From positions 987,331 through 1,051,330 of the forward strand of contig OY969726.1 of assembly GCA_963702215.1 (NCBI GenBank): a DNA stretch of 64,000 bases, read 5' to 3'. Below, piece after piece: positions 52,403-57,335 of this stretch. Source of the DNA: an uncultured Bacteroidota bacterium (GTDB lineage Bacteria; Bacteroidota; Ignavibacteria; Palsa-1295). A model generated the notes under the pieces. The model ran no database searches. It had not been told where the DNA came from and worked only from the letters and a program-made list of their open reading frames with translations. How positions within the stretch are numbered: position 1 is the first letter of the stretch; each line of letters starts with the position of its first letter. The translations under genes were made by a program, and so were the position numbers.

Positions 52403-54163
52403 TCAGTCAAATCCTTCAGGCATTTTCTCCACCATCCGCTTCACCTCCTCGTATTCCGGTGTGCCGGCAAGCTGGGCGATACCTTCGTCGCTGTCGTCCG
52501 TCAGGAATTCCTTCAGAGCGCGGATATTCTTAAATCCCGCTTCGATCGCCTTACGAAAGGTGGCGAGCGCTTCCGGCTTATCGCCCAACACCCCAAACAG
52601 GCAGGCCGTATTGTAGAGCGCGCTGCCATCCCGGAGGTTCTTTAGTTCCAGGGCCGCAGCGCGGGCATCGTCCTTTCGGCCACTCCGGAAAAGCAGGGAC
52701 GCATATTGTTGCTGGCTATCTTCATCGTCCGGATGGAGCTTGAGATGCCGCTCTTCAACCGGAAGAGCCATGAGTGCATATTTTGTACATTTATCGCCGT
52801 TCGATGGGTCATCCTCTTTCCCCGCGCTGCACGCGAGAACAAGATTGGACAGGGCCGCTCGGTCGTCCGGCTTAATCCGGACCGCTTCTTCAAAAGGAGC
52901 GGCGGCTTTGGCCAGTTGGCCGGTATTGCCATAGAAAAATCCGAGCGAGAAATGGCTAAGAAAATTACCGGGCGCCTTTCGAATGAATTCCCGCGCGGTT
53001 GATTCCGCCTCCGCGAGTTTGCCCTGATGCATATAGATCGCCGAAAGTGGAAGATAGACTGCATCCAAATCGGGCTTTAGCCGCAAGGCCTCTTTGCAGA
53101 GCGATTCCGCTTCCACAAGCAGTGCAGGATTGCGGTCATAGGCGCGATAAAGATTCGTGCTTGCGTTGGCGTTGCTTGCATAAGCAAGTGCAAATCCGGG
53201 ATCGTGGCGGGTGGCGTCCGTAAAGAGCTGAACCGCTAGTTGAAATCCCTCCTTGGTTTGGCGGAGAAAATACTCCGTTGCTTTAAGATACAGTTCATAC
53301 GCCTCCGCATTTTCCGTTCCGCGCTCGGCAAGCTTTTTCTTTTCCTCCGAGGTGAGATGAAGCTTGAGGCCATCGACCACCTTTTTTGCAACGGCTTCCT
53401 GAATATCGAAAATATCCTTCATCTCGCCGCGCAGAGAATCCTGCCAGAGATGATCGCCAGTTTCGATGTCTAACAGCCGAGAACTAATTTTGATCTGCTC
53501 GCCGAATTTGCGAACATCGCCCTGCACGAAGTAGCGAACTTGCATCGTCGCGGCATAAACGGTAAGCTGGCCCTTATAGCTCTTGAATTCCTTCGTTGCC
53601 TGCGCGTCGCAGAGATGCAGCGCCTTCACATTTGATAGCGCATTGATAAGTTCCGAAACGATTCCATCGGCAAACCACTGATTGTCCATCGAAGGCGATA
53701 AATCTTCGAATGGCAGAATCATCAGCGATTTCTTGCCGTCCGTTTCTTTCACGATTTTCGGAGCCTGCGGCGCGCCAGTGGCTTCGAGGCCAAGCTTCGA
53801 GAGCGCGCGGATGATGGCGTCGATGTTGGTCATCGCGGTGCGCTGGATGCCGGCGAGATGGTACGCTAAATCCCTGCTTAATGCGACCGGCTCCAAATCC
53901 AGGGGAAGAATTTTCTTTTTTCGTTCCGAGGCCAGCGCCACTTCCTTCTGGACGTTCGTGGACTGTGTGGACGCGGTGGACAGCAATACGAGGAACGCTT
54001 TGCAGCCATCTATCGCATCGACGATTTCGCCGGACCACAACGTCGCCACGTCGATACCCTGCTTATCGATCCAGCACGAAAGCCCGGCACTGCCGAGCAT
54101 CTCCGCAAGCAGTTCCGCCTGCGCGGAATCTTTACGGGAGTAGGAGATGAAGATTTCAGGCAT
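52403..54163 (-). CDS. TIR domain - TolB_N-like domain - TPR protein (copy 1)
   Basis: IFISYSRKD...WID...EIVDAID...VQKEVALA; LMILPFEDLS...FADGIVSELI; TPRs. Confidence 0.88.
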   Translation of the reverse strand: MPEIFISYSRKDSAQAELLAEMLGSAGLSCWIDKQGIDVATLWSGEIVDAIDGCKAFLVLLSTASTQSTNVQKEVALASERKKKILPLDLEPVALSRDLAYHLAGIQRTAMTNIDAIIRALSKLGLEATGAPQAPKIVKETDGKKSLMILPFEDLSPSMDNQWFADGIVSELINALSNVKALHLCDAQATKEFKSYKGQLTVYAATMQVRYFVQGDVRKFGEQIKISSRLLDIETGDHLWQDSLRGEMKDIFDIQEAVAKKVVDGLKLHLTSEEKKKLAERGTENAEAYELYLKATEYFLRQTKEGFQLAVQLFTDATRHDPGFALAYASNANASTNLYRAYDRNPALLVEAESLCKEALRLKPDLDAVYLPLSAIYMHQGKLAEAESTAREFIRKAPGNFLSHFSLGFFYGNTGQLAKAAAPFEEAVRIKPDDRAALSNLVLACSAGKEDDPSNGDKCTKYALMALPVEERHLKLHPDDEDSQQQYASLLFRSGRKDDARAAALELKNLRDGSALYNTACLFGVLGDKPEALATFRKAIEAGFKNIRALKEFLTDDSDEGIAQLAGTPEYEEVKRMVEKMPEGFD

Positions 54164-54302
54164 GTTTTGGTAGGCGCACCCTTCAATGTACGGCGAACGT
54201 GACATTGCCGAACACTCGTCGTGACGCAAAAGTCACGGTTATAGGGAGATTAAACACCATCCGGGATTCATCGCGAAGCAGGTTTGCGTTAAGGGGCCGA
54301 TC

Positions 54303-55473
54303 ATGACATTTGGTAAAGAAATACGCAGCGAATGGCTGTTAGATGAAGACGTGATTTTTCTCAATCACGGTTCTTTCGGGGCTTGTCCGCGCTCGGTGTT
54401 GGCCGTGCAGCGGGAGTGGCAATCGCGCATGGAAGCGGAACCCGTTCGCTTCATGACTCGTGAATTGCCGCAGCAATTGGAGGCGGCAAGAGCAGAACTC
54501 GCTGGCTTCGTCGGCTCACATGCGGAGGATCTGGTTTTTGTCCACAATGCGACGGATGGCGCGAATGCCGTGCTTCGTTCGCTGCTTCCCCAATTCAAAC
54601 CGGGCGACGAACTGCTCACAACGAGCCAAGCCTACCGAGCTATCCGGCAAACAATGCTCTATGTTGCGGAACTGTGCGGAGCTACAGTGGTCGATGCTGT
54701 GGTTCCCTTCCCGATCGCGAGTGCGCAGGAAGTCACCGATGCCATTGCTCGGGCAATCACACCGCGGACCGCCTTCGCCGTAGTCGATCACATCACGAGC
54801 CCGACCGGGCTTGTCTTTCCCATTACCGAAATCATCGCACTCTTTAAAGAGCGCGGCATACCGGTGCTCGTAGATGGCGCCCACGCGCCCGGACAGATCG
54901 ACTTAGACCTCAATACACTCGGCGCCGATTATTACGTTGGGAACTGCCACAAATGGCTCTATGCCCCAAAGGGCGCGGCGATGTTATGGGTGGATAAGAA
55001 GCATCCGCGCAAAATCCATCCAACCGTTATCTCGCATTTCCTCGGCGGAGGCTTCCAGAACGGAATTCAACTGGACGGGAACTCTGGACCCGACGGCCTG
55101 GCTCGCCATTCCGGCCGGAATAGCGTTCCACCGAACGCTCGCCGCTCAAGGAAGCCGGGAATATACGCGAAGGATGCTCCTCAATGCACGCCGCGCGATC
55201 TCTCGCGCGCTCGATCTGCCGCTTGCCGCTCCGGAAGAGATGCTTGCCAACCTCTGTACATTTCCAATGCCAGGCGATCCGGATGCGACCGAGGAACGCG
55301 TTCAGCAATTACATGACAGTCTCTTCAATGAGTACCGAATCGAAGTTCCCGCCATGAATGCGAATGGGAAGCTCTATCTCCGAATTTCCTCGCAGGTGTA
55401 TAATGACACATCGGATTTCGAAGCGCTGAAGGCGGCATTGGTGGAGATCGGCGGTGTGGGAAGGATCGCATGA
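54303..55473 (+). CDS. PLP-dependent class V aminotransferase (CefD / Egt2 C-S lyase-like), frameshift near 55055
   Basis: LNHGSFG, DHITSPTG, VDGAHAPG, GNCHKWLYAPKG, LRISSQVYN. Confidence 0.88.
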
Positions 55474-55594
55474 ACCGTGATTGATGAGATGAGTAGGGTC
55501 ACTCCCTCGAAAGTATTACCCTCGCGCACTCGCGTGCAACTGAAAGGTTACCGCAGCAACAGGGTCTGGGTTCCCGCGTCCTCAGCATGAGCGA

Positions 55595-57335
55595 TCATCC
55601 TGCTTCAGCCAAGCTCTCCACCATCCGCTTCACCTCCTCATACTCCGGCGTCCCGGCAAGCTGGGCGATGCCGTCGTCTTCATCCGTCAGGAATGCCTTC
55701 AATGCCTGCGTATTCCTATATCCTGCTTCGATCGCCTTGCGAAACGTGGCGAGCGCTTCCGGCTTATCGCCCAGCCTTTCAAACAGGCAGGCCGTGTTGT
55801 AGAGCGACATGCCATCCCGCGCATTCTTTAGATTCATCGCTTCCAGGCGGGCGTCATCCCACCGGCCAGCCCAGGAAAGCAGGTTTGCATAAAGAACATG
55901 GTAAGCTTCATCGTCCAGATGAAGTTTGAGATGCCGCTCGAAATGTGGCAATGCGACGTGTGCCCATTTCGAGCATTTCTCCGTTTCCTTGGCTGCGTCG
56001 CATTGATTAACGAGCCCGAACAGGCCCGGGCAATTGCCCGGCTTCAGCCGAACCGATTCTTCATACGGTGCAATGGCGTTGGAATACTGGCCGGTTTCCG
56101 CGTAGAAAAATCCGAGCGAAAAATGGCTCATGAAATTATCGGGAGCCTTGCGAATGTATTCTCGTGCGGCGGCTTCCGCTTCCGCCAGCTTGCCCTGAAG
56201 CATATAGACCTGTGCGAGCGGATGATAGACTGCCACCAGATCGGGCTTTAGAAGCAGCGCATCTTGGCAGAGCGATTCCGCTTCCACAAGAAGCGCGGGA
56301 TCGCGATCATAAGTGCGATACAGCGCCGAAAGCGCGTTGGCCCTCGCCTGATATGCATTCGAATACCCGGGATCGAGCTGGATGGCCTCCGAAACGAGCT
56401 TCGCTGCAAGCTCGAACCCTTCCTTGGTTTGGCGAGCAAAATACTCACCGGCTTTAAGAAAAAGTTCATAGGCTTCGGTATTTTCCGTTCCGCGCTCGGT
56501 AAGCTTTTTCTTTTCATCGGAGGTGAGAACGAGGTTGAGGCCCTTTACCACTTCGCTCGCCACTTTTTCTTGAATATCGAAAATCTCCTCCATTGTTCCG
56601 CGCAACGAATGTTGCCAGAGATGATCGCCCGTATCTATATCGAGCAGGCGGGCGTTGATCTTGATCTGATCGCCAAATTTTCGCACATCGCCCTGTATAA
56701 AATAACGGATTTGCATCGTCGCGGCGTAGGTGGCGAGTTGCCCTTTGTAGGATTTAAATTCCTTCGTGGCCTGCGCGTCAGAAAGATGCAGCGATTTGAT
56801 ATTCGAAAGCGATTGGATAAGTTCCGAAACAATGCCATCGGCGAACCATTGGTTATCCATGGAAGGAGATAAATCTTCGAACGGCAGGATCATCAGCGAT
56901 TTTTTGCCATCGGTTTCCTTCACAATCTTCGGAGCTTGCGGCGCGCCGGTGGCTTCCAATCCCAGTTTGCCGAGCGCCCGGATGATCGAGTCGATGTTCG
57001 TCATCGAAGTCCGCTGCAACCCGGCCAGATGATATTGCAAATCTTCGCTGAGGGCAACCGGCTCTAAATCCAAAGGAAGGATTTTCTTTTTCTTTTCCGA
57101 TGCTAACGAGACTTCTTTATGGACGTTCGTGGACTCATTCGACGAAGGCGAAATCAGCACAACGAATGCTTTGCATCCATCGATGGCCTGCACGATTTCC
57201 TTTGACCAGCTCATGGCCGCCTCGATGCCGGAATGATCGATCCAGAACGGAAAGCCCAGCGGAAGCGAGCATCTCCGTGAGCAGTTCGGCCTGCGCGCGG
57301 TCTTGGGAGGAGTAGGAGATGAAGATGTCAGGCAT
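55595..57335 (-). CDS. TIR - TolB_N-like - TPR protein (copy 2), frameshift near 57250
   Basis: MPDIFISYSSQD..., then after the shift WIDHSGIEAAMSWSKEIVQAID...VHKEVSLA; core nearly identical to copy 1. Confidence 0.85.

Follow-up and report, generated by a model that had tools for sequence, protein, structure and literature searches.

Bacterial TIR enzymes are evolutionary relatives of the TIR domains of plant and animal immunity, and almost all of those studied belong to mobile multi-gene anti-phage systems. The described system closest to the genes reported here is TIR-II of Escherichia coli, a single anti-phage protein with an N-terminal TIR domain and C-terminal tetratricopeptide repeats (TPRs), which has no partner gene and whose defence function needs the TIR catalytic residues; TIR-II systems are widespread, also occur in phages and carry an ATPase in about 30% of cases (PMC11350192, Nat Commun 2024). 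Single proteins joining TIR and TPRs are therefore already known (PMC11350192; BcTir/Tpr preprint), as is the occurrence of the sensor scaffold discussed below on other heads. Here we describe two copies of a gene that encodes a TIR domain, a central domain with the fold of the TolB N-terminal domain (TolB_N) and a TPR solenoid, located in a 64,000-nucleotide (nt) window of contig OY969726.1 (assembly GCA_963702215.1) from an uncultured Bacteroidota bacterium. Compared by architecture, not by sequence, these proteins match TIR-II but differ in three respects: no TolB_N-like central domain has been reported for TIR-II, the copies have no ATPase and their family is confined to a single lineage and absent from the phage collection that we searched. 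In the literature, we found no description of TIR fused to a TolB_N-fold domain, of a restriction to Kapaibacteria or of coupled arrays, and no relevant paper joining TIR with TolB-like, TolB-like cyclase with TPR, or Kapabacteria with TIR. Tentatively, we read the two proteins as cytoplasmic single-chain sensor-enzymes of a Kapaibacteria-specific family, in which a ligand would gate NAD+ cleavage by the TIR domain and whose members would form a receptor repertoire.

Both copies lie on the minus strand. According to its translated open reading frame (ORF), copy 1 (positions 52403–54163 of the window; ATG at 54163, stop at 52403–52405) is intact and encodes 586 amino acids (aa), and the AlphaFold2 (AF2) model of the whole protein has a mean predicted local distance difference test score (pLDDT) of 88.7. 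The TIR domain (aa 1–122, 53798–54163; Pfam TIR_2 over aa 4–109) contains a candidate catalytic glutamate, Glu74 (codon 53942–53944). It is followed by a stretch of 51 aa, identical in both copies, which covers the linker and the start of the central domain (aa 123–173, 53645–53797). The central alpha/beta domain (aa 144–268, 53360–53734) was assigned to the TolB N-terminal/PelC/LpoB fold with AF2 and Foldseek, while the remainder (aa 269–586, 52406–53359) is a helical linker and TPR solenoid that is all-helical in the model, matches Pfam TPR_2, TPR_1, TPR_17, TPR_19 and related families, and is the presumed ligand-binding part. Copy 2 (55595–57335; ATG at 57335, stop at 55595–55597) has 579 aa if read through and repeats this order, with a TIR domain (56969–57335) interrupted by a frame break and matched by Pfam TIR_2 on both pieces, the Glu74 codon at 57113–57115, its half of the identical stretch at 56816–56968, the TolB_N-like domain at 56531–56905, and the helical linker and TPR solenoid, again matched by Pfam TPR families, at 55598–56530. 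The initial annotation of this locus had the coordinates and strand of both copies right and described two co-oriented paralogues of about 585 aa; this is accurate for copy 1, but copy 2 is not an intact ORF as assembled, the one extra base in its TIR domain having been overlooked.

The TIR domain of copy 1 matches Pfam TIR_2 at E = 2.2e-19 (70.6 bits against a cut-off of 28), and both pieces of copy 2 match as well. When a profile of the family's TIR domain was compared with solved structures, the hits were the TIR of SARM1 (E = 1e-9), Cat1, AbTir, TIR-STING, TIR-APAZ and PdTIR. Both copies keep the TIR glutamate, as had been noted initially, within NVQKEV and NVHKEV; it corresponds to the Glu in WVHKEI of SARM1 (position E642) and is invariant in alignments of 50 and of 16 family members, the former including paralogues of 30–35% identity. 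By resemblance, the TIR domain of both copies is probably of the NAD+-cleaving type, and the likeness to NAD-cleaving TIRs proposed at the outset fits with best structure matches that are all enzymatic TIRs.

Two well-studied TIR systems offer further points of comparison. SARM1, an animal NAD+ hydrolase, is built from a sensor solenoid, a domain for oligomerisation and a TIR NADase, a logic to which the present proteins can be likened. Among solved structures it matches the TIR domain best, and its catalytic Glu falls in line with that of the family, but its domain order is reversed, its solenoid consists of ARM repeats and not TPRs, its middle domain is SAM and not TolB_N-like, and Trp638 is replaced by Asn here; beyond the TIR domain there is no sign of common descent. 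Thoeris (the TIR protein ThsB with ThsA) likewise shares the TIR domain, but matches to ThsB models are weak (ThsB_TIR score 19.8, below the Pfam cut-off of 21.2), and a ThsA, SLOG, Macro or SLATT effector gene adjoins the family in none of 58 related loci and is absent from the window. No Thoeris or CBASS partner was found within about 10 kb of the copies, in agreement with the initial annotation. The 824-aa 'tetratricopeptide repeat protein' of PDB 9M0N and 9UMD, whose N-terminal stretch weakly matches the family TIR profile (E = 0.027), may serve as a structural model for TIR+TPR proteins.

Between the TIR and TPR regions lies a 125-aa domain whose fold was settled only through AF2 and Foldseek. 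Pfam returned no match to TolB_N or any other family for this domain, even at E ≤ 10. The AF2 model of the domain alone (pLDDT 87.5; predicted template modelling score 0.81) was matched by Foldseek to GNA1162, the TolB N-terminal domain, PelC, FlgT, LpoB and CsgG with template modelling (TM) scores of 0.57–0.69 and E-values of 5e-8 to 1e-5, GNA1162 at E = 5e-8 and TolB (4PWZ, 2W8B, 4R40 and 1CRZ) at TM scores of 0.62–0.67; the domain profile also has a weak sequence match to PelC (E = 0.016). The TolB_N label given initially thus stands as a statement about fold, not as a Pfam assignment.

Together, the central domain and the TPRs form a module that recurs behind other heads. The whole-protein profile retrieved TPR proteins only from the PDB sequences, and Foldseek with the whole model mostly TPRs. 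CadC was among the latter matches: the central domain plus TPR aligned with its periplasmic sensor over about 305 columns (Foldseek 3LY7, 3LY8 and 3LYA, E = 2e-7 to 7e-7), and NCBIfam matched CadC at 1e-7 over aa 161–432 and HilA at 4e-4. CadC, the E. coli pH/lysine/cadaverine sensor, has the same two-part layout of an alpha/beta subdomain followed by a helical bundle; its module, however, is periplasmic, lies behind a membrane helix and controls a winged-helix DNA-binding head, while that of the two copies is cytoplasmic and follows a TIR domain. With BLASTP, aa 109–432 aligned to a rhizobial Guanylate_cyc protein at 31% identity over 334 aa (E = 2e-36). The rhizobial class III adenylate/guanylate cyclases (for example, WP_064826189.1 of Rhizobium phaseoli) have a homologous C-terminal TolB_N-like and TPR module, a similar length (590 versus 586 aa), the same order of head, central domain and TPR, and many copies per replicon, but their Guanylate_cyc head makes a cyclic nucleotide from ATP or GTP, in place of the NAD+ cleavage predicted for the TIR head. 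In other families of the same bacterial class, a Ser/Thr kinase domain precedes the same module. Because cyclase, kinase, winged-helix DNA-binding and TIR heads all occur on it, the sensor module evidently accepts interchangeable heads. As a separate observation, several giant proteins of 1,800–2,800 aa (P0218, P0239, P0290 and others) carry three to seven TolB_N-like domains each.

No NTPase domain was detected in the copies by Pfam, NCBIfam or PADLOC, and they are therefore not members of the NLR/STAND class. The description of the family as NLR-like does not hold in the strict sense, as NB-ARC, NACHT and other NTPase domains are all missing. Neither copy has a signal peptide or membrane helix, and both are cytoplasmic.

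Overall, the copies share 73.6% aa identity, and a per-domain comparison of dN/dS (omega) confirmed the uneven divergence anticipated by the initial annotation. The central domain is the best conserved (83% aa identity, omega 0.07), followed by the TIR region (75%, omega 0.18), whereas the TPR region is 66% identical with an omega of 0.34 and with 40-codon windows reaching about 0.7; the helical linker has an omega of 0.31. The 51-aa stretch KLGLEATG...SELI, which had been singled out for its identical protein sequence and mostly third-position changes, differs at 23 nt between the copies, 22 of them at third codon positions (dS 1.37, omega 0.006), and not one of 200,000 random draws of 23 substitutions came out fully synonymous. 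The stronger divergence of the TPRs relative to the core is matched across the family: among 128 members, mean column entropy is 0.61 bits for the central domain, the most conserved part, 0.78 for the TIR domain and 1.37 for the TPR region, the most variable. In closer family pairs, omega is 0.03–0.3 for the TIR and central domains and 0.25–0.46 for the TPRs. Domain-wide positive selection on the TPR region was considered and ruled out, the maximum omega being 0.46 over the two copies and these closer pairs.

In a tree of the 128 members, copies 1 and 2 are sisters with a support of 0.995, and the next outgroups are P0002 and then P0004/P0011. The copies arose by duplication in this lineage and both have stayed under purifying selection, which is strongest in the central domain and the linker. 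Between them lies a class-V aminotransferase gene (54303–55473, plus strand; Pfam Aminotran_5, E = 1.4e-32), which is not part of the TIR family and is convergent with copy 2. P0004, the synteny orthologue of copy 2, is also convergent to an intact Aminotran_5 gene, which identifies the copy 2 locus as the ancestral one; intact aminotransferase orthologues of 389–390 aa adjoin the copy 2 orthologue in L015–L017 and L035. The proportion of synonymous differences (pS) between the copies is about 0.67, near saturation, in codons 61–240 and 0.36–0.49 in much of the C-terminal half, where it is lower than against the L015 orthologue. This unevenness suggests a mosaic history, for example through partial gene conversion, within the limits that saturation sets on such an inference.

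The family as a whole is expanded, as had been proposed. Four soluble members were counted in this genome, two or three of which have a broken frame as assembled; besides copies 1 and 2, the soluble members listed are at C1:2550188 (36% identical, intact) and at C1:580913 and C1:332259 (both broken in the assembly). Variants accompany them. One is a 513-aa TIR-TPR protein without the TolB_N-like domain, encoded on the minus strand in the G000:C1:599400 region (L022:241–1782). Another is a membrane-spanning paralogue of 495 aa (G000:C1:832826–834313; L007:1492–2979) in which a hydrophobic helix separates the TIR domain from the TolB_N-like domain, a topology that recalls Toll-like receptors or CadC, with the TIR domain inside and the sensor outside. 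About 33 sequences make up a separate orthologue group for the membrane variant, and each of them has a hydrophobic 19-mer near residue 150; none of 181 soluble members has a hydrophobic segment. Within the same bacterial family, 33 of 35 genomes carry the gene family, with 1 to at least 22 copies each, and one genome has at least 24. Across 300 genomes sampled from the phylum, the fusion of TIR and central domain was found only in the window's own genome, which is the sole representative of its bacterial family in that sample. At E ≤ 1e-30, matches among 1.84 billion representative proteins fall into about 300 clusters at 50% identity. A search of a phage collection gave one weak TIR-only match and no family homologue. 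The gene family is essentially restricted to one bacterial family of Kapaibacteria-like bacteria.

Related genomes contain co-oriented arrays of six to eight family genes, in which an overlap of exactly 8 nt (ATGNCTGA) is shared by 33 of 48 adjacent pairs, implying translational coupling. Some pairs have near-identical TPRs and divergent N-terminal halves, or vice versa, and such mosaics indicate recombination within the family. Two loci deserve separate mention: the array neighbours at L042:6270–9750 have a TPR dN of 0.09 against 0.55–0.70 for the TIR and central domains, a clear recombination mosaic, and L047:6465–9680 is a 1071-aa ORF in which two family members are apparently fused in one frame.

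If the two copies are sensor-enzymes, as we tentatively propose, their mechanism may be sketched by analogy. Cyclases, winged-helix heads and TIR enzymes need dimerisation or oligomerisation, and several proteins of the TolB_N fold form rings (the PelC dodecamer and CsgG). A ligand, probably a peptide or protein, would bind the TPR surface and change how the protein associates with itself via the conserved central domain, which would bring TIR domains together into a composite active site that cleaves NAD+. The outcome would be NAD+ depletion or the release of ADP-ribose-derived signals. As to role, we narrowly favour an intracellular receptor repertoire with differing TPR specificities, on the grounds of tandem duplication, recombination and a copy number that runs from 1 to more than 20 in a single genus; such a repertoire would act like the single-protein TIR+TPR anti-phage systems, minus an NTPase.

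Several observations weigh against this proposal. An aromatic residue four positions before the TIR glutamate matters, though it is not strictly defining, and here that position is held by an invariant Asn70 where SARM1 has a tryptophan (Trp638), such that the chemistry of the TIR domain may differ. The oligomerisation step is drawn solely from analogy with TIR enzymes and ring-forming proteins of the PelC/CsgG fold. At the level of the domain, the TPR region is under purifying and not diversifying selection (omega 0.25–0.46). The neighbours are housekeeping genes, here typA, a type III polyketide synthase and rplO-secY-map and in other genomes groEL, lexA, uvrB and trmE, and there is no defence island. 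The family is limited to one lineage, and nothing points to its horizontal spread or to copies in phages, a pattern unusual for bacterial defence genes. All carriers are uncultured metagenome-assembled genomes, and no member has a known activity, ligand or phenotype. Finally, the corrected frame of copy 2 depends on one low-depth contig.

Several of these points are what would be expected from ordinary, non-immune signalling, a possibility that we take seriously. Here, the TIR domain would be one interchangeable output head among several, the paralogues would sense cellular or environmental cues, and an NAD+-derived second messenger would be read by receptors encoded elsewhere in the genome. 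The distribution of the sensor module agrees with this, since CadC/HilA, Ser/Thr kinases from the same bacterial class and rhizobial cyclases (31% identity, same length) carry it too. The same can be said of the selection on the TPRs, of the synteny of the copy 2 locus, which is kept across genomes, and of the 8-nt overlaps, which suggest co-expressed operons. Given the housekeeping context and the vertical inheritance in one lineage (33 of 35 genomes of one bacterial family and almost none outside it), ordinary signalling fits about as well as an immune role. Weighing the other way, the known bacterial TIR enzymes act in defence or virulence: to our knowledge, all that have been characterised are anti-phage defence or virulence effectors, and we know of no housekeeping TIR messenger pathway. 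A candidate messenger receptor adjoins family genes in none of the 58 loci, and core signalling genes rarely vary as widely in number as from 1 to at least 22 within one genus.

A more far-reaching version of the receptor-repertoire reading, which we regard as rather unlikely, is that these genes make up a lineage-wide chromosomal repertoire of NTPase-less TIR receptors, in which nearly invariant TolB_N-like domains would let different paralogues join in mixed oligomers and many TPR specificities would feed one NAD+-cleaving output. The receptors would be produced from the translationally coupled tandem arrays and diversified by duplication and recombination, and the conserved paralogue that crosses the membrane once, its TIR domain inside and its TolB_N-TPR part outside, would be a member shaped like a Toll-like receptor.

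The frame break in copy 2 raises a separate question, compatible with any of these functional readings, namely whether copy 2 is a genuine pseudogene in a genome where the family is in decay. As assembled, copy 2 consists of two ORFs: 57135–57446 (103 aa), which encodes MPDIFISYS...AGLS and then leaves the frame, and 55595–57214 (539 aa), which encodes the remainder. The break itself is one extra base in GTTC within the TIR domain (57246–57248, minus strand). In addition to copy 2, two further family members are frame-broken as assembled, and the copy count in this genome is below that of many relatives, as decay would predict. To evaluate the break, we used short contigs identical to this genome from four soil-metagenome runs. 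A 172-nt contig covering 57136–57308 has no mismatches and omits one base at 57246, which opens the frame of copy 2. Because this contig is otherwise identical and simply omits the extra base, an assembly error is the probable cause of the break. In the final 20 kb of the window, the soil contigs differ from the assembly by one substitution and two single-base omissions, the second of which, at 62924, joins the ORFs 62626–62943 and 62957–64000. For one other family member, the sole difference is an omission at L004:1500, exactly at the junction of its first and second pieces (C1:581067). All three indel differences between the assembly and the soil contigs therefore sit on frame breaks, and all three restore the frame, which argues against a pseudogene, as does the strong purifying selection along all of copy 2.

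Similar breaks affect genes outside the family. The aminotransferase at 54303–55473 is likewise frame-broken, near 55059, and a large membrane-protein gene (62626–64000, plus strand) is split into two ORFs by the probable assembly insertion at 62924. The breaks in copy 2 and in the aminotransferase gene both fall within one 11-mer, CCAGAACGGAA, which lies on the same DNA strand at the two sites and hence on opposite coding strands; of its six genomic copies, four resemble frame breaks, compared with 2 of 23 other CCAGAACGG sites. By a crude count, same-strand ORF junctions that look like breaks occur at 462 per Mb here and at 260 per Mb in the loci of relatives (about 1.8-fold), and nearly all family genes in relatives have an open frame. 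No soil-metagenome contig spans the aminotransferase break or those at C1:~333318 and ~582375, and no simple methylation-type motif common to all insertion sites was found, the context being shared by only two of four sites. A programmed frameshift in copy 2 was also considered and ruled out, on account of the shared 11-mer on opposite coding strands and the contig without the base. We conclude that the break very probably reflects a context-dependent insertion in the consensus of a long-read-type assembly, and that a genuine pseudogene is quite unlikely. More generally, this is a single-contig genome with context-dependent single-base insertions, and apparent pseudogenes and split genes in the assembly need caution.

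Least convincing is a non-enzymatic scaffold, in which the TIR domain would serve as an assembly module that recruits other TIR proteins without cleaving NAD+, as in animal Toll/IL-1 receptor signalling: the Asn70 substitution near the active site and the presence of possible TIR partners in the genome, including the membrane-spanning variant and the TIR-TPR protein, lend it some support, but the invariance of the catalytic-position Glu across 50 diverse members, distant paralogues included, and best structure matches that are all enzymatic (SARM1, Cat1, AbTir and TIR-APAZ) make it very improbable.

The surroundings of the family were surveyed in the 58 related loci, where clustering of ORFs gave no conserved partner gene. 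Recurrent close neighbours were antisense artefacts, LexA (four to five loci) and Aminotran_5 (four loci), and the recurrence of the latter two is explained by orthologous synteny. PADLOC reported TIR-only matches for the family proteins and, among the neighbours, only a generic SspA/DndA-like match for the class-V aminotransferase, unaccompanied by further Ssp or Dnd genes. A scan for promoters and terminators was uninformative. In the four to five loci with lexA, the gene is divergent to a TIR array, and the intergenic regions (L014:8010–8251, L031, L065 and L036) share a recurring AGGTGC(C/T)C-N-GCA(T/C) element, a putative LexA operator; from sequence, this hints at SOS control of some TIR arrays. 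In the window, copy 1 is followed downstream, after 128 nt and on the same strand, by a type III polyketide synthase and an ICMT-family methyltransferase (50624–52275, minus strand). The pair looks like an alkylresorcinol/alkylpyrone-type system, with no apparent link to the TIR genes.

Findings particular to this window are the resolved break of copy 2, the per-domain selection figures and the arrangement of sister copies flanking an aminotransferase gene. The family itself stands apart from the mobile TIR systems described so far, being vertically inherited and lineage-restricted, built on the sensor scaffold of cyclases, kinases and transcription factors, and present in more than 20 copies in operon-like arrays. 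Should its members prove to be immune receptors, bacteria would have their own equivalent of the germline receptor expansions of plants and invertebrates, without an NTPase switch; should they instead be ordinary signalling enzymes, NAD+-derived TIR messengers would for the first time be seen at work outside immunity.

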